From: a virus
Taxonomy: Duplodnaviria > Heunggongvirae > Uroviricota > Caudoviricetes
Reading direction: 5' to 3' (one strand)
DNA: 16,924 nucleotides
IMG/VR virus record: IMGVR_UViG_2778261457_000004
Shown piece after piece: positions 9,116 to 14,614 of this stretch. A program made the translations under genes and the position numbers. The notes below the pieces were generated by a model. The model did no database searches. It worked only from the letters and a program-made list of their open reading frames with translations, and was not told the origin of the DNA. Position 1 is the stretch's first letter. Each line of letters opens with the position of its first letter.

Positions 9116-9727
9116 TCAAAGAGAAAAGCTAAAGCCCAGAAGGGAAGCCAAAGAACTTGAGGATTGGTTAAACGTGCTGTGCAATGCGAAGGTCATTGGG
9201 AATGACTTAAATTCAGTAACCTGATCTCGCGCATAGGTGACATCGCCGGTAGTGACCGGGAATACCGTCATCTCATTTTCCAGTTTGGTTAAGCCGGAAG
9301 ACAGCAACCGATAAATACGCACATTGAGCAAATATTTAGACGGTATATTCCCGGTACCGTCCGGATTGATTACCCGACTTTTTGCCGTCTTAAACCAGTC
9401 CAAAACGAGGCCATCAACGGTATCCCTGACCATCATTGTTATCTGCCCTGGCGAACGCTCCGTTGGTTGAAGGATATTCCCTCCACCGATTTTCATCGTT
9501 TCATATTCGATGCTGTAATCGTGGTAGGTAATATCTTTGGCAAAGAAGTCTGCCCCTTCCAGTCCATCAACTTCGACAGAGAACTGCCATCCTTGCGCGA
9601 ACAGCATTTTGTTCATGATGATTGACGTCAGCTTACCAACTTCCCGTTCACCAACGCCGGAGCCAAATAATGTCGTCGTTAATGCCGAAGATACATAAGA
9701 CTTTACTGAAGCAACATTAAACCCCAT
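9116..9727 (-). CDS. Putative tail tube / major tail protein, 203 aa
   Basis: ATG at 9725-9727 with GAGGG SD 10 nt after the upstream stop. Size and position two genes upstream of the tape-measure-like gene fit a tail tube protein. No motif verified. Confidence 0.55.
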   Translation of the reverse strand: MGFNVASVKSYVSSALTTTLFGSGVGEREVGKLTSIIMNKMLFAQGWQFSVEVDGLEGADFFAKDITYHDYSIEYETMKIGGGNILQPTERSPGQITMMVRDTVDGLVLDWFKTAKSRVINPDGTGNIPSKYLLNVRIYRLLSSGLTKLENEMTVFPVTTGDVTYARDQVTEFKSFPMTFALHSTFNQSSSSLASLLGFSFSL

Positions 9728-9737
9728 ATCAGCCCTC

Positions 9738-10347
<610 letters not shown>

Positions 10348-10457
10348 GTCATTTGTTACCGGTCAGTCTACACATTTCAGATGCTGCGTTAAAAAACCCA
10401 AGTACTTCAAGTAGCACATCGTCATCAACACCCAGCCCCAAGATACGGTGATAAAAT

Positions 10458-11492
10458 TCAAGCCTTAAGAGGCTTTGTGTATGTTCGTGTAATCCATCCA
10501 GTAATAAACTCGTCCCCTGATTTAACCTGCACGAAAAGCCATTGGCGATCTTTTTTATCTAAAACAGCCACTATAGTATTTTTGCCAATGCATTCAATCA
10601 CCTCACTATTTATAGAAGGACTGACGTGTAATCTTACGTTCTCACCAGTTATAAAACGAAAACCATTGAGATCTTCCCAACTAATTTCTTTGTTTTCTTT
10701 AATTAATTGTTGTTTTGATATTGGTTTATCCTCAAACAGAGATATAAAATATGATTCTGCCTTGTGTATTCCCAGCAAGGTTTTCTCTTTTCCGTAATCA
10801 ATAAAAGCACCAAACACAACTTGAGAAAATATAACCATTAGTAACCATTGCAGTGGATAAGGAAGCTCTTTAAATGAATCAACAAACTTTGAGCTAGGTT
10901 TATTTAATCCTTTGTTTTGAACATTACTTTTGGTGTGTGATGTTTCAGTAGCACCTTCAGCATAAGCCTGCGCAATAGATGAAATCCCCTGCTCTATTAT
11001 TTGATGTAATGAAGCATTTCTTGTTCTAGCATAGTGATCTAGTACTTTCTTTATGTCTTGGCTTACATCTATTTTATAACTTGCACTTTGTTGTAATTCT
11101 TTAAGTATCGCTTGCATGTTATTTAAACCAGCTTGCTTATTAAGCACCTCAAGCTGTTTTCGTAATGGCATAGCTATTTCGGCCTGTTTCCTTAGCATTT
11201 GAATATATCTATTTGCGTCATGAGGGAAAAGAGCCTGAGGATGTTTCTGTAAAATCGCGATATGTTCACGATACTTGCTGCCTATTCCAGCCAAGTTCGG
11301 CATACTAGCCAATTGTTTTCGAAGAGAGTTACTAATTACAGCTTGTCTATTCAATCTTGTCATATTTTGAAAAGAATGTTTTTCTATTCCTAATTGTTTT
11401 TGCAAGATCACTACGTGATCTTTGTATGATGGAATGAGCGCTGGCTGTTTATACAGTAACTTCAACTCATTAGAATTAGTAATTTTTGTCAT
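10458..11492 (-). CDS. Bitopic membrane protein with cytoplasmic tandem-repeat region and C-terminal SH3b-like domain, 344 aa
   Basis: AT-rich ORF. ATG at 11490-11492 preferred; the ORF track's TTG at 11525 would add 11 codons. TATAAT-like sequence directly upstream. Internal imperfect repeats (HVVILQKQL…LRKQLASMPNLAGI / HIAILQKHP…LRKQAEIAMPLRKQLEVLNKQAGL). One predicted TM helix (LQWLLMVIFSQVVFGAFIDYG). C-terminal ~75 aa has the SH3b pattern (…VRLHVSPSINSEVIECIGKNTIVAVLDKKDRQWLFVQVKSGDEFITGWITRTY). Confidence 0.7.
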   Translation of the reverse strand: MTKITNSNELKLLYKQPALIPSYKDHVVILQKQLGIEKHSFQNMTRLNRQAVISNSLRKQLASMPNLAGIGSKYREHIAILQKHPQALFPHDANRYIQMLRKQAEIAMPLRKQLEVLNKQAGLNNMQAILKELQQSASYKIDVSQDIKKVLDHYARTRNASLHQIIEQGISSIAQAYAEGATETSHTKSNVQNKGLNKPSSKFVDSFKELPYPLQWLLMVIFSQVVFGAFIDYGKEKTLLGIHKAESYFISLFEDKPISKQQLIKENKEISWEDLNGFRFITGENVRLHVSPSINSEVIECIGKNTIVAVLDKKDRQWLFVQVKSGDEFITGWITRTYTKPLKA

Positions 11493-11566
11493 ATTATTCC
11501 ATTTATATAATAGAATATTACGCAACCAATGTTTTATTGATTGCGTTAATCTTTAACACAGAAAGA

Positions 11567-12043
11567 TCATTTGCCTCGTTTAATACATCCATCCATTTTG
11601 GCTTGTTGATACAACTTACTTAGCCCAGAAAGAGGGAATGTAGCAATTTTTTCATTATCAACATAAGCATCAATCATATTAGCATTTGAATCTGCTGCAT
11701 CTTGCCAAAAGGCATACCACCAAGAATCTCCAACCATTGATCCAAGATTGCTAAAAGGATATTGCTCACCATCTATAGTTAATACTATTTTATTCTTGTC
11801 AGCATTATACTCTTTTTTATTATTCGACGAACTTAGCAACAAGCCTAAACTACCTGCACTATCTGGTGAACCATACATGAATCCCATATCACATAAAAAA
11901 CTTATCTTATCACCATTATGATTATGGATTGTATATTCTCTCCCCCCTCTCTCTTCAATTACATTCCATTGTAGAGGATCTATTTTTGCAAATGTTCCTG
12001 CTGAAACTAACGATACAAATAATAAAAACCATCTCATATTCAT
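11567..12043 (-). CDS. Secreted/periplasmic protein with Sec signal peptide, 158 aa
   Basis: AT-rich ORF; N-terminus MNMRWFLLFVSLVSAGTFA|KID is a typical signal peptide with an AxA-like cleavage site; two Cys residues; no recognisable family. Confidence 0.7.
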   Translation of the reverse strand: MNMRWFLLFVSLVSAGTFAKIDPLQWNVIEERGGREYTIHNHNGDKISFLCDMGFMYGSPDSAGSLGLLLSSSNNKKEYNADKNKIVLTIDGEQYPFSNLGSMVGDSWWYAFWQDAADSNANMIDAYVDNEKIATFPLSGLSKLYQQAKMDGCIKRGK

Positions 12044-12065
12044 TCTTTTCGCTTCTTATCTGTAA

Positions 12066-12416
12066 TTATTCTGCAATATCATTTGCCCATTGCACGGCAG
12101 CAAAATGAGTACCCAAACCACTCAGGAAAGCAATTACCCCCAAAACAATACTTGCTGCTGTTGATTCAAACAAAGTACCAATACTATAGCCAATAGCTCC
12201 CCATACTAAGCTAAATACAATCATCAATGGTATTGCCAGAAATTTTATTCTTAAACTAAAAATCAGTCCAAGAAAAGAACCGCCAAAGGCCCACCATGAT
12301 TTAGACATTAAACCTATCAGTATTGACAGAATTCCTATTTCAATAAAGAGAATATTAGATTGCTCTTCATTGAATTTCGCATTTGTTACACCTTTACGAA
12401 CATGTTCAGATGACAT
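12066..12416 (-). CDS. Small polytopic inner-membrane protein (about 4 TM helices), 116 aa
   Basis: AT-rich ORF with ATG at 12414-12416 and AGGAG about 11 nt upstream. Four hydrophobic segments (ILFIEIGILSILIGLM, WWAFGGSFLGLIFSL, IPLMIVFSLVWGAIGYSIG, ASIVLGVIAFLSGLG). Confidence 0.65.
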   Translation of the reverse strand: MSSEHVRKGVTNAKFNEEQSNILFIEIGILSILIGLMSKSWWAFGGSFLGLIFSLRIKFLAIPLMIVFSLVWGAIGYSIGTLFESTAASIVLGVIAFLSGLGTHFAAVQWANDIAE

Positions 12417-12562
12417 GATTAACTATCTCCTGCCACAGATAAAACGCCTTAAAATAACATTTTGTAGCATAAAGTTTCACCATGCAATGGTCAAAATCTT
12501 TGACCCATATCAATTAAACTCATACATTTTAGTTACCAGAGAAATAATTCACATGGTTGCAA

Positions 12563-12579
12563 GTTGCTCTAATTATTTT
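12563..12579 (+). promoter_or_regulatory. P1 C1-repressor-type operator (Op51-like) upstream of the immunity region
   Basis: GTTGCTCTAATTATTTT matches the asymmetric 17-bp C1 operator consensus ATTGCTCTAATAAATTT (recalled) at 14 of 17 positions. It shares the exact 10-bp core TTGCTCTAAT with two further sites in the window. Confidence 0.5.
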
Positions 12580-12651
12580 ATTTTTTTAGCTTCATATGCT
12601 ACATTAACTTGCTTTAGTGCTAATGCATTTTCGGTTTATCCTAAACAGGCA

Positions 12652-12728
12652 TCTTAGTAAAACGGATGCCGGGATTGGAACCCCGGATAATGCAAAAGGC
12701 GACACAGACGCCAAAAGCGTCTTTTTTT
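12652..12728 (+). ncRNA. Candidate c4-like antisense repressor RNA (boundaries approximate)
   Basis: Stem-loop CCGGG-ATTGGAAC-CCCGG (12669-12686) followed by a terminator-like hairpin. Segment 12669-12700 is an imperfect inverted copy of 12810-12841, which lies just upstream of the icd-like ribosome binding site. Position between a C1-type operator and an icd-ant pair mirrors the P1/P7 immI organisation. Confidence 0.35.
12707..12728 (+). terminator. Intrinsic terminator-like hairpin with U-run
   Basis: GACGC (12707-12711), loop CAAAA, GCGTC (12717-12721), then TTTTTTT (12722-12728) on the plus strand. Confidence 0.5.
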
Positions 12729-12809
12729 GTGTCATGCCATCGCACAGCCATACGTAGCACATAGCTCCGAGATCAATGGTAGTGCTGGCTGGGCTGCCGA
12801 AAGGCAGGC

Positions 12810-12871
12810 CGGTTCCCTTTTGCGCCGGTAGTTCCAACCCAGTCAGTGCTACCGCCATTGAGATTGGAACC
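12810..12871 (+). promoter_or_regulatory. Antisense target / leader region of the icd-ant operon
   Basis: CCTTTTGC (12816-12823), CCGG and GTTCCAA (12831-12837) are complementary to GCAAAAGG, CCGG and TTGGAAC in 12669-12700. GATTGGAACC is directly repeated at 12672-12681 and 12862-12871. GCTACCGC (12848-12855) and GCGGTAGC (12876-12883) form an 8-bp inverted repeat. Confidence 0.4.
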
Positions 12872-12913
12872 TCACGCGGTAGCTCCTTAAATTAGCAAAA
12901 GGAGGCTGCCATT

Positions 12914-13135
12914 GTGGCTACTATCCCTACCCCTACTCATCCTGAATTTATCTGGCGCTTTTACTCCTGCCAAAAACAACACTATCACTTCGTTATCGCA
13001 GCAACTGAAGACGAAGCACGCTCTCAATTGCCTGATGGCCCCTGCATTTTTACTGCCCGTTTTTCTACTAACTCGCGCAATTCACTTAGTTACTGGAACC
13101 TCCCCTTCTCTGCCGACGTTCAGGGGGTTTTATGA
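12914..13135 (+). CDS. icd: Small icd-like protein, 73 aa, translationally coupled to the antirepressor
   Basis: GTG start at 12914 eight nt after a GGAGG SD. The stop TGA overlaps the antirepressor ATG (ATGA at 13132-13135). Architecture matches P1 icd; the 73-aa length of P1 Icd is from memory and sequence homology is not verified. Confidence 0.5.
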   Translation: MATIPTPTHPEFIWRFYSCQKQHYHFVIAATEDEARSQLPDGPCIFTARFSTNSRNSLSYWNLPFSADVQGVL

Positions 13136-14520
13136 AAAAACCTCTCGTCACCCGTAATGAAATTGCCGAAGCGTTCGCTTTGCATACAACCTGTATGCCG
13201 ACACGGGAGATCCCCGGCGCAATTGCCAACTATTTCATGATAACCAGGCGTTTTTATACCCGAACAGATAAGGCTGTGATCAACAGGCTACTGATAGCCG
13301 AGATCAGGGATTATTTGATTGAACAAGGACGTCTACGTTACGCAACAGTGGCAGCAGAAATGAGAAAGGAGGCACATAGAATGACCGGTAATAATTTGAA
13401 TGTTGAAAAACCAGCACCTGTTGCTTCAGCTACGCCATCACCAGCTGTGAATGTTATCTCCAACACTGGAGACACAATCGACAGCCAGACACTGTTAAAG
13501 ATGGTCAATGAAGCGCGTAAGTTATGTGGGGAACCAGCGGTTCGGAACAACAAATTCATCGAAAAAATACTCGACGAATTAGAAGGTGAGGACGGTTACA
13601 CAAAAAGTGCAACCGTGCCACCAGGTGGCGGTACGCCTATGGTTGTCATAACCATGACCTACAAACAAGCCCTGCGAGTTGCCGCGCGCGAGTCAAAAGC
13701 GGTCCGCCGTTCGCTACAAACCATGATTCAGGCATTGGAACCTATAAATGTTGAAAATCAGCCTGATGAAATTCCCGTTCTGGAATGGCAGGGAGTACGC
13801 GTCGTGACAACCGAGACTCTTGCTAGAGGGTATGACACTACACCTATTCGTATTCAGCAGAACTACAATCGCAACGAAGAACGATTTGTAGAGGGTAAAC
13901 ACTTCTTTAAAATCAAAGGAGATGAGATAAAAAGTTTGCGACTATCTTTTAGCGAGTTGCAAATTTCCCCCAAGACCAGATCCTTAATACTCTGGACCGA
14001 ACGCGGAGCGGCACGCATGTCTAAGATCGTAGACACAGAGCAAGCGTGGGCATTCTTTGAAAAACTGGAAGACAGCTACTTCCGGCAAAAAGAACAGCAA
14101 CCGGTCACAATCCCCCAAACATTACCAGAAGCCTTGCGCCTGGCCGCCGAGTTGGCAGAACAGAAAATGCAGTTGGAACAACAGCTGGTGGCCGCAGCCC
14201 CTAAAGTCGATTTTGCCGACCGGGTATCAGTGGCTAATGGAATCCTGATCGGGAACTTTGCAAAGGTCGTTGGACTTAAGCAAAACGCCCTTTTCTCATG
14301 GTTGCGCCAGAATGGCATTCTCATGGCTTTTGGAGCGCGCAAAAACGTACCGCGCCAACAGTACATCAACGCCGGGTATTTCACGGTGAAAGAAGTGGTG
14401 CTGGATGATGAAAATGGCTACCAGATACGGCTGACGCCCCAATTAACGGGTAAAGGCCAGCAGTGGTTAACTCGCAAGCTACTTGATGCTGGTTTGTTAA
14501 AACCAGTAGCAATAGGTTAA
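13132..14520 (+). CDS. ant: Phage antirepressor (Ant) with C-terminal KilAC/AntC domain, 462 aa; possible second product from an internal in-frame start
   Basis: ATG at 13132 with AGGGGG SD. Middle region resembles antirepressor ORF6N/AntA-type domains (…WQGVRVVTTETLARGYDTTPIRIQQNYNRNEERFVEGKHFFKI…LILWTERGAARMSKI…). The C-terminus (…LPEALRLAAELAEQ…APKVDFADRV…GYFTVKEVVLDDENGYQIRLTPQLTGKGQQWL…) is the KilAC-type antirepressor domain. An internal in-frame ATG at 13381 follows a strong AAGGAGG SD. Confidence 0.85.
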   Translation: MKKPLVTRNEIAEAFALHTTCMPTREIPGAIANYFMITRRFYTRTDKAVINRLLIAEIRDYLIEQGRLRYATVAAEMRKEAHRMTGNNLNVEKPAPVASATPSPAVNVISNTGDTIDSQTLLKMVNEARKLCGEPAVRNNKFIEKILDELEGEDGYTKSATVPPGGGTPMVVITMTYKQALRVAARESKAVRRSLQTMIQALEPINVENQPDEIPVLEWQGVRVVTTETLARGYDTTPIRIQQNYNRNEERFVEGKHFFKIKGDEIKSLRLSFSELQISPKTRSLILWTERGAARMSKIVDTEQAWAFFEKLEDSYFRQKEQQPVTIPQTLPEALRLAAELAEQKMQLEQQLVAAAPKVDFADRVSVANGILIGNFAKVVGLKQNALFSWLRQNGILMAFGARKNVPRQQYINAGYFTVKEVVLDDENGYQIRLTPQLTGKGQQWLTRKLLDAGLLKPVAIG

Positions 14521-14532
14521 CAAAAGAAAAAA

Positions 14533-14557
14533 CCTGCCAGCAAACTGGCAGGTTTCT
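14533..14557 (+). terminator. Terminator-like hairpin after ant
   Basis: CCTGCCAG, loop CAAA, CTGGCAGG, followed by TTTCT; the U-run is weak. Confidence 0.4.
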
Positions 14558-14597: not shown

Positions 14598-14614
14598 TTT
14601 GCTCTAATAAATTT
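14598..14614 (+). promoter_or_regulatory. P1 C1-repressor-type operator (Op53-like) upstream of kilA-repL
   Basis: TTTGCTCTAATAAATTT matches the recalled C1 operator consensus ATTGCTCTAATAAATTT at 16 of 17 positions, about 70 bp upstream of the kilA-like start. An 8-bp inverted repeat AATCACCA…TGGTGATT lies at 14633-14656. Confidence 0.6.

Follow-up and report, generated by a model that had tools for sequence, protein, structure and literature searches.

A probable ant1/ant2 pair with two in-frame translation starts in the immI operon of a P1-like plasmid-prophage

Introduction

Does the antirepressor gene of a P1-like plasmid-prophage specify one protein or two? In the window analysed here (the whole 16,924-nucleotide stretch of IMG/VR record IMGVR_UViG_2778261457_000004), the ant1 reading frame at 13132..14520 (+ strand; 462 codons plus stop) encodes a long product of 462 amino acids and 52.0 kDa. 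A first-pass annotation had noticed inside it an AAGGAGG motif followed by an in-frame ATG, and had proposed that it gives two nested products like P1 Ant1 and Ant2, of which the longer could carry a separate N-terminal domain. Ant has been described as an Ant1-Ant2 heterodimeric antirepressor under C4 RNA control (PMC8546580; PMC8198154). We asked what the locus is, how well the internal start is conserved, and what lies on either side of it.

Results

Identity and layout of the locus

The window matches P1 at 97.4% identity across 78% of its length with a shared gene order, and by this comparison it is a P1-like (Punavirus) plasmid-prophage. The 462-codon frame lies in the gene context icd-ant-kilA-repL, as in P1, and alignment identifies it as the orthologue of P1 ant (ant1): the two proteins are 91% identical in aligned columns, with homology in the N-terminal extension, in the conserved N-domain and in KilAC, and nucleotide identity to P1 ant is 90.8% over nt 1-584 and 98.1% over the last 411 nt.

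Its surroundings have the layout of an immI region, with C1-operator-like sites, a leader RNA, C4 RNA, an icd-like ORF and ant, and then a KilA-N/KilAC protein downstream. At the head of the operon, in the position of P1 Op51/Oc4, a C1-operator-like site (12563..12579, + strand) reads GTTGCTCTAATTATTTT, with 3 mismatches to ATTGCTCTAATAAATTT; P1 Oc4 is equivalently placed, and a promoter scan places a promoter-like site (12548-12576, + strand) over it. The leader RNA element (12649..12727, + strand; Rfam isrK, RF01394, 58.5 bits) holds upstream a1/b1-like copies of the C4 targets, TTGGAAC at 12675-12681 and GCAAAAGG at 12692-12699. The C4 antisense RNA gene follows at 12772..12859 (+ strand; Rfam RF01695, 76.7 bits, where the gathering score is 45, E 8e-14). 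As read from the sequence, its loops CCTTTTGC (12816) and GTTCCAA (12831) are complementary to GCAAAAGG and TTGGAAC, respectively, which recur in the predicted C4 target sites a2/b2 (12864..12902, + strand; a2 at 12864-12870, b2 at 12895-12902); a2/b2 analogues are annotated in P1. The AAGGAGG at 12899-12905, which is the ribosome-binding site of icd, shares nucleotides with b2. Just past the ant stop codon lies a G+C-rich 13-bp hairpin (14528..14557) that has a terminator score on the - strand and, read on the + strand, no following T run. A C1 operator with 1 mismatch to the operator consensus (14598..14614, + strand), equivalent by P1 annotation to Op53/OrepL, precedes kilA-repL.

The upstream part of the region departs from P1: the c4 region of the window does not resemble that of P1 upstream of position 12941, and the recognition sequences of C4 are different. 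Phage D6 has an isrK/C4/icd region 88% identical to that of the window, and the specificity of the C4 antisense RNA is predicted to be D6-like. In D6, too, icd is coupled to the downstream antirepressor gene (orf83-orf82) by overlapping stop and start codons, but that antirepressor is of an unrelated Rha/Roi type, with neither the N-terminal extension nor an internal start.

Two translation starts in one frame

The icd-like gene (12914..13135, + strand; 73 aa, GTG start; NCBIfam phage_ICD_like 7.4e-14; phrog_1426 2.6e-45) ends in the ATGA at 13132-13135, where its TGA stop overlaps the ant1 ATG. This overlap agrees with the earlier description of 13132 as a coupled start, and is predicted to allow icd-ant1 translational coupling. 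The ribosome-binding site of ant1, GGGGG (13123..13127, + strand), pairs with the anti-SD sequence at -10.1 kcal/mol and is predicted to take part in a 9-bp hairpin with codons 2-5. The internal ant2 site, AAGGAGG (13366..13372, + strand), is separated by the 8 nt CACATAGA from the ATG at 13381-13383, which is codon 84. Since 13381 lies 249 nt, or 83 codons, beyond 13132, this ATG is in frame, and the predicted short product, ant2 (13381..14520, + strand), has 379 amino acids (42.3 kDa). All coordinates of motif, start and frame in the first-pass annotation thus proved correct, as did its estimate of a product of about 380 residues.

Strong pairing to the 3' end of 16S rRNA is found at 2 of the 34 in-frame ATG, GTG and TTG codons, namely 13132 and 13381. 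The value at 13381 is -11.6 kcal/mol, equal to that of the icd start, and the remaining candidates in the ORF score -8.4 kcal/mol or weaker. Around 13381 the RNA has less structure than shuffled controls do (z +1.15 and +1.5), and a + strand scan found no promoter-like site between the two starts.

The same arrangement is annotated in known phages. GenBank records of P1 (AF234172, X15639), P7 and RCS47 all start ant2 at +249 nt, and in all three phages that start follows the same ribosome-binding site at the same spacing; X15639 also annotates the AAGGAGG as a ribosome-binding site, 8 nt upstream of that start, the AF234172 note speaks of an 'Ant1/Ant2/C1 complex', and the P7 note describes ant2 as 'contained within ant1 and translated in the same frame'. 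P1 shares with the window the locus, the gene order, the ATGA coupling to a 73-codon icd, the AAGGAGG, the 8-nt spacing and the in-frame ATG at codon 84. P1 Ant products of 42 and 32 kDa have been described, with N-terminal sequencing. Because the internal site and ATG coincide with the known P1 ant2 start, the nested starts seen here are already known biology, in a P1-type gene with one extra domain.

The protein body after codon 84

Three modules follow the internal start. The first is a conserved antirepressor N-domain (about residues 113-200; 13468..13731, + strand), recognized by tblastn, alignment, phrog_1726 and phrog_12199 and common to free-standing antirepressors of Stx, P22-like, APSE and Erwinia phages. 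Next come an ORF6N domain (residues 216-299; 13777-14028, + strand; Pfam PF10543, 5.6e-20) and a KilAC/ANT domain (residues 349-451; 14176..14484, + strand; Pfam PF03374, 1.5e-30), so that residues 216-451, in the C-terminal portion of what is here a longer chimera, have the ORF6N-KilAC antirepressor pattern. P1 Ant, in contrast, joins the N-domain directly to KilAC. By blastn segment boundaries, a 394-nt segment (13716..14109, + strand) that includes ORF6N stands in place of 49 nt of P1 ant, and the predicted products are 462 and 379 aa in the window versus 347 and 264 aa in P1. P7 and RCS47 likewise lack ORF6N: their body is of the two-module P1 type (344-348 aa), and their C4 specificity differs. 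The additional ORF6N makes the window gene a variant in architecture, not a separate system; its absence from P1 and the RefSeq labeling of the identical sequence as two partial pseudogenes mean, however, that activity could differ from that of P1 Ant. The whole 462-aa protein has no sequence relatives in the PDB, and a single-sequence AlphaFold2 model of its full length was unusable (mean pLDDT 40.7) and was excluded from the fold search.

Free-standing antirepressors (Erwinia phage Midgardsormr38 ORF19, JEP4 gp17, Stx2a_WGPS6_06 and the APSE-7 regulator) share the highly conserved domain of Ant residues 113-200 at 60-68% identity, and Midgardsormr38 ORF19 also has KilAC. They differ in that each has one start, measures 232-244 aa and begins where Ant residues 99-105 align, with neither the 83-residue extension nor a nested start. 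From these alignments, Ant2 would roughly correspond to a complete ordinary antirepressor, and Ant1 to the same protein with a leading 83-residue helical domain and a flexible linker.

Conservation of the internal start

The first-pass annotation had held that the case for two products would fail if the internal site were not conserved in homologues. A scan of genome contigs gave 3 loci only, so P1-type homologues were gathered from IMG/VR. In all 93 of these ant genes the AAGGAGG and its 8-nt spacing are invariant, the internal start codon being ATG in 89 and GTG in 4. This family has diverged little (about 4% pairwise, with 21% of sites polymorphic), and invariance of a 7-mer within it carries little weight by itself (p ~0.19); we therefore added a diverged paralogous family of 80 icd-ant genes (61% amino-acid and 66% nucleotide identity), between which and the P1 type synonymous sites are saturated (dS > 2). 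Its members are second or third icd-ant cassettes of P1-like plasmids, such as have been noted for pSvP1 and RCS47 (PMC6906374). These cassettes (family 'MRTSLVTREE...', e.g. P0015 and P0016) share C4 RNA, the 73-codon icd, the ATGA overlap and the 83-codon extension with the window gene; they differ in that the extension is only 61% identical in amino acids and the body past Met84 is usually ORF6N + KilAC (370-372 aa), without the conserved P1 Ant N-domain. All 80 have AAGGAGG-8 nt-ATG at codon 84. Across the two diverged families, then, 173 of 173 homologues retain the site, and the objection from non-conservation fails. Of 20 nt at the internal start, 19 are identical between the families; immediately downstream of the ATG, inter-family identity falls to 41%.

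Could this site be a relic of gene fusion, in which an antirepressor gene was joined in frame to an upstream 83-codon gene and only the long protein is made or relevant? The free-standing homologues do begin near the Ant2 start, the extension is confined to the P1-type lineage, and differing bodies are joined exactly at that start; in one ENA-derived relative, P0009, a deletion takes out Met84, so not every copy needs the short form. A perfect site without use would be expected to decay, yet this one is invariant in 173 genes of two families between which synonymous sites are saturated. The sole start-codon change, ATG to GTG, leaves a start codon, the surrounding RNA is kept unstructured, and the P1 records and literature place both proteins in an active complex (PMC8546580; PMC8198154). 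We consider the fusion relic improbable.

A still less probable reading is that AAGGAGG is an internal SD-like sequence arising from Lys-Glu-Ala codons, or an elongation pause site, and that the ATG encodes an ordinary internal methionine. The motif does code for these residues, and RKEAHRM is retained in both families, so protein constraint could explain part of its conservation; however, the synonymous alternatives AAA and GAA never occur among the 173 genes, and the exact 8-nt distance to an in-frame start is retained whereas the spacer itself differs at 4 of its 8 positions among the 93 P1-type genes. By count alone the heptamer is unremarkable (3 in the window versus 1.7 expected). On the two strands of the 16.9 kb, AGGAGG-N4-10-ATG occurs twice where 0.81 would be expected; scaled down to one strand of the 1.39-kb ORF, the chance expectation is about 0.03, and about 0.01 if the ATG must also be in frame. 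A domain boundary and the ant2 start annotated in P1 both fall at the site. What decides the matter is homology and conservation, not single-window statistics. On these grounds the locus is very probably an ant1/ant2 pair, a single frame that has two in-frame translation starts, within the immI immunity operon of a P1-like plasmid-prophage, and the proposed likeness to P1 Ant1/Ant2 is well supported by orthology and by the ant2 annotations.

The Ant1-specific N-terminal domain

The 83 residues unique to Ant1 (13132..13380, + strand; phrog_63, 8.7e-26) are predicted to form a helical N-terminal domain, which occurs in P1-type cassettes only. A first protein homology search with residues 1-83 returned 10 short near-identical fragments only; an exhaustive HMMER search of 1.84 billion representatives revealed the 61% family, and all relatives that it found are P1-type. 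When the two families are compared, dN/dS over codons 1-83 is about 0.11, which indicates purifying selection. AlphaFold2 gives pLDDT 80-94 for residues 1-70 and predicts a compact unit of helices with a disordered linker after it. Searches of Pfam and NCBIfam with residues 1-83 gave no match, and Foldseek with the 1-106 model found nothing below E = 0.4 (BFVD) or E = 2.5 (PDB), which leaves an Ant1-specific domain without an assignable fold relative. The idea that residues 1-83 are a separate domain is thus partly supported, by selection, by the predicted fold and by their absence from free-standing homologues; the regulatory or targeting role suggested with it is conjectural. These data also make it hardly credible that the short ORF is the sole real gene and the 83 upstream codons an annotation over-extension that yields no functional domain: the ant2 site is indeed stronger than the ant1 site, and the automatic phage annotation MH445381 calls the short CDS alone, but the extension is constrained and predicted to fold, both families (93 + 80 genes) retain the icd ATGA overlap and, ahead of the first ATG, a GGGGG/AGGAGG site, and P1 Ant1 is an annotated, named product.

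Discussion

The sequence geometry, orthology, conservation, domain layout and RNA elements were established directly; production of two proteins, their assembly into a complex and their targeting of C1 would follow by analogy with P1. By orthology, Ant1 (462 aa) would be started at 13132 by ribosomes ending icd at the ATGA overlap, its modest GGGGG site being predicted to lie in a small hairpin, and Ant2 (379 aa) would be started at 13381 by other ribosomes loading directly on the perfect, unstructured AAGGAGG. Ant1 and Ant2 would then join in a complex that binds the C1 repressor and tips the prophage towards lytic growth, as reported for P1. In a lysogen both starts would be silent: C1 would repress the promoter, and the C4 antisense RNA, from the same transcript, would pair with a2/b2 over the icd ribosome-binding site. 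Two in-frame starts in one ORF, with both forms acting together, are also known from lambda S107/S105 and T7 gene 4A/4B, whose proteins and functions are unrelated to Ant.

More speculatively, and we think this doubtful, the codon-84 SD-ATG could be a conserved exchange joint at which a lineage-specific 83-residue adaptor, always icd/C4-coupled, has been joined to at least three antirepressor bodies (N-domain + KilAC, ORF6N + KilAC and, in the window, N-domain + ORF6N + KilAC), the three-module protein recognizing more than one repressor. A recent copying of the ORF6N segment from the paralogous cassettes was considered and rejected, as identity to them is only 74-77%. If the joint were real, it could link the two or three coexisting immI-like cassettes on P1-like plasmids, and could alter which resident or incoming phages are derepressed.

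Nested in-frame starts that give long and short forms of a regulator are easily overlooked by automatic annotation; PGAP names one product only for the ant gene. P1-like plasmid-prophages occur commonly in E. coli, frequently with resistance genes on board, and recognition of ant1/ant2 at this locus implies that they keep the full P1 immunity switch. The nested-start result itself opens no new question. It is a modest addition to what is known of P1 immI, an invariant start site with swapped modules after it, and it points to the contributions of the Ant1-specific domain and the extra ORF6N.

An ant2 start within the ant ORF

The ant ORF runs for 462 codons (13132-14520) and follows an icd-like ORF of 73 codons (12914-13135) that begins with GTG and whose TGA overlaps the ant ATG as ATGA. 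Within ant lies a ribosome-binding site, AAGGAGG (13366-13372), followed after 8 nt by an ATG at 13381 that is in frame 249 nt (83 codons) into the ORF and would give a 379-aa product. The first-pass annotation had drawn attention to this site, its in-frame ATG and the ORF, all of which are present in the sequence at those coordinates. The motif by itself is not striking across the window, where AAGGAGG occurs 3 times (1.7 expected) and AGGAGG-N4-10-ATG twice over both strands (0.81 expected). Within the ant ORF the internal site does stand out: scaling from the whole-window value of 0.81, about 0.01 in-frame occurrences are expected, and strong pairing with the 16S rRNA 3' end is found at only 2 of the 34 in-frame ATG, GTG and TTG codons, 13132 (-10.1 kcal/mol) and 13381 (-11.6 kcal/mol). 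The other plus-strand AAGGAGG (12899-12905) lies 8 nt 5' of the icd-like GTG, a spacing the same as that at 13381.

The window is 97.4% identical to phage P1 over 78% of its length (megablast), with gene order kept from the tail-fibre/sit genes to repL; megablast leaves some 22% (1-700 and parts of about 9000-12940, including DNA that lies 5' of the C4 region) unmatched to P1 or P7. The 2.1 kb around ant matches P1, P7, RCS47, SJ46 and other punaviruses as well as 766 plasmid records, mostly from E. coli. In P1 record AF234172, ant1 (48688-49731) and ant2 (48937-49731) are likewise offset by 249 nt, and both carry the note 'antagonizes C1 repression by formation of Ant1/Ant2/C1 complex'; in P1 record X15639 the ribosome-binding site (774-780) and ant2 (789) have the same 7 + 8 nt geometry as the window. 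The P7 and RCS47 records also annotate ant2 at this offset, that of P7 as 'contained within ant1 and translated in the same frame'. Judged by offset and geometry, the internal start is thus the ant2 start of P1, which supports the earlier proposal of nested, P1-like products, and we identify the arrangement as the already known ant1/ant2 pair in a close relative. Ant is described as an Ant1-Ant2 heterodimer, a secondary antirepressor of C1 restrained by C4 RNA (PMC8546580; PMC8198154; PMC8201110, which cite Heisig et al. 1989 and Riedel et al. 1993 for the original findings), and by analogy the window element would produce both proteins. One phage record (L009, MH445381.1) annotates at 1450-2244 just a short, ant2-length CDS, named 'KilA protein', so gene callers can favour the internal start.

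Conservation of the ant2 start

The 93 P1-type ant genes that we compared came from IMG/VR (80 loci), three genome contigs, plasmids and phage records. None departs from AAGGAGG or from the 8-nt spacing, while 4 of the 8 spacer positions vary; 89 have ATG as the ant2 start codon and 4 have GTG (IMG/VR loci L067, L069, L070 and L075), these 4 being intact 347-codon genes with Met84Val in Ant1. Pairwise divergence in this family is just about 4% and 21% of its sites are polymorphic, so seven unchanged bases, taken alone, count for little (p ~0.19). Searching exhaustively with HMMER for relatives of residues 1-83 recovered a paralogous family ('MRTSLVTREE...', 61% aa identity) that makes up additional immI-like cassettes, the second and third, of P1-like plasmids (577 plasmid records; 80 IMG/VR loci), each with its own C4 RNA, leader element, 73-codon icd and ATGA overlap. 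Over codons 1-83 the two families share 66% nt identity, with dN 0.27, dS about 2.5 and dN/dS about 0.11, which shows that the extension is translated and under purifying selection and that its synonymous sites are saturated. Despite this saturation, AAGGAGG-8 nt-ATG stands at codon 84 in 80 of 80 paralogous genes; the 20-nt stretch from site through ATG, identical between families at 19 positions, ranks among the top two 21-nt windows for conservation, and right after the ATG identity drops to 41%. Conservation in homologues had been proposed as a check on the two-product reading, and the site and its spacing are kept in all genes of both sets.

Many P1-like plasmids bear two or three C4-icd-ant cassettes. 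One source genome (IMGVR_UViG_2548876964) holds at least three complete ones with differing Ant bodies: paralogues of 370 and 344 aa (L142, contig 000015; L175, contig 000006) and a locus whose ant is identical to the window's (L018, contig 000024).

Operon elements and predicted control

All the RNA and DNA elements of the P1 immI operon are present: C4 antisense RNA (12772-12859), an isrK-type leader (Rfam isrK, 12649-12727) in the position of the P1 a1/b1 leader, the icd-like ORF directly upstream of ant, kilA (a KilA-N/KilAC protein) and then repL downstream, and C1-operator-like sites at 12563-12579 and 14598-14614. Both C4 target sequences recur in the leader, at 12675 and 12692; in the paralogous cassettes this position holds either isrK or an Rfam c4-a1b1 element. 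Rfam isrK is an Hfq-binding sRNA of Salmonella Gifsy-1. A 39-aa plus-strand 'ash family protein' called by RefSeq covers the greater part of the C4 RNA gene (related loci L010, L012 and L179, each 477-596; window about 12776-12895) and looks like a spurious protein on an RNA gene.

Ant1 initiation would probably depend on ribosomes terminating icd. Folding predicts a 9-bp hairpin in which codons 2-5 (AAAACCUCU) bind GGGGG (13123-13127), the ribosome-binding site of ant1, and the AUG occupies the loop, a model that fits such dependence; the fold of 13106-13150 is no better than shuffled controls (z 0.17). The P1 annotation calls icd 'apparently required for expression of ant'. Ant2 would initiate independently on its own strong, open site, and the RNA at 13381 is less foldable than shuffled controls (z +1.15 over 121 nt, +1.5 over 61 nt). 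Between the two starts we found no promoter-like site, so a single mRNA would serve both proteins. Silencing of the operon by C4 would rest on two predicted pairings: GTTCCAA (12831) with TTGGAAC (12864-12870), and loop CCTTTTGC (12816) with GCAAAAGG, whose position (12895-12902) overlaps the icd ribosome-binding site. In P1, blocked icd translation also leads to premature transcription termination before ant, and termination of this kind would shut off Ant2 even though it has a site of its own.

These C4 loops and targets differ from P1's (a2 TTGACAG, b2 GTTAGTGA), and upstream of 12941 the window resembles phage D6 (88%), not P1; together they predict an immI immunity specificity other than P1's.

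Module exchange at the ant2 start

Where P1 ant has 49 nt, the window has 394 (13716-14109), and the ORF6N domain gained in this way sets its allele apart from that of P1. This long form is the minority (8 of 93 sampled genes; 26 plasmid records; 28 of 5,426 complete E. coli genomes), and the window's exact ant allele occurs in two E. coli O111:H8 plasmids and IMG/VR contig UViG_2548876964_000024. RefSeq splits the uninterrupted 462-codon ant of one O111:H8 copy (NZ_CP077546.1; L179 833-2221) into two partial pseudogenes ('Ant, missing C-terminus' and 'KilAC protein, missing N-terminus'); the split is probably artefactual and due to the gene being a chimera of three modules. A recent copy of the ORF6N segment from the paralogous cassettes is ruled out by an identity to them of just 74-77%.

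The N-terminal extension (residues 1-83) has predicted helices at 8-18, 24-38, 47-65 and 70-86 (pLDDT 80-94 for residues 1-70), and yielded no family relative in Pfam or NCBIfam and no fold relative in structure searches of BFVD and PDB. It is followed by a Pro/Ala-rich, apparently disordered linker (88-106, to about 112; pLDDT below 50 for 88-106), a strongly conserved N-domain (about 113-200), an ORF6N domain (216-299) and a KilAC domain (349-451). After Met84 the body consists of N-domain and KilAC in P1 and in P0015, a protein of a P1-like plasmid cassette, of ORF6N and KilAC in P0016, the commonest paralogue, and of all three modules in the window. An Ant variant from an 8.6-kb ENA contig (P0009) joins the extension straight to the conserved N-domain (...AAEMRKEARKLCSEKPVRNN...) and lacks residues 84-128, Met84 included, a deletion that apparently arose via short KEA(H)R / EARK similarity.

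Free-standing antirepressors of Erwinia, P22-like, Stx and APSE phages (232-244 aa) open with Ant's conserved N-domain and begin at positions corresponding to Ant residues 99-105, so Ant2 is a roughly complete canonical antirepressor and Ant1 is Ant2 plus a lineage-specific domain. What the comparison adds to the known arrangement is that the ant2 start site does not vary in either of the two diverged cassette families and sits at the junction where protein modules are exchanged.
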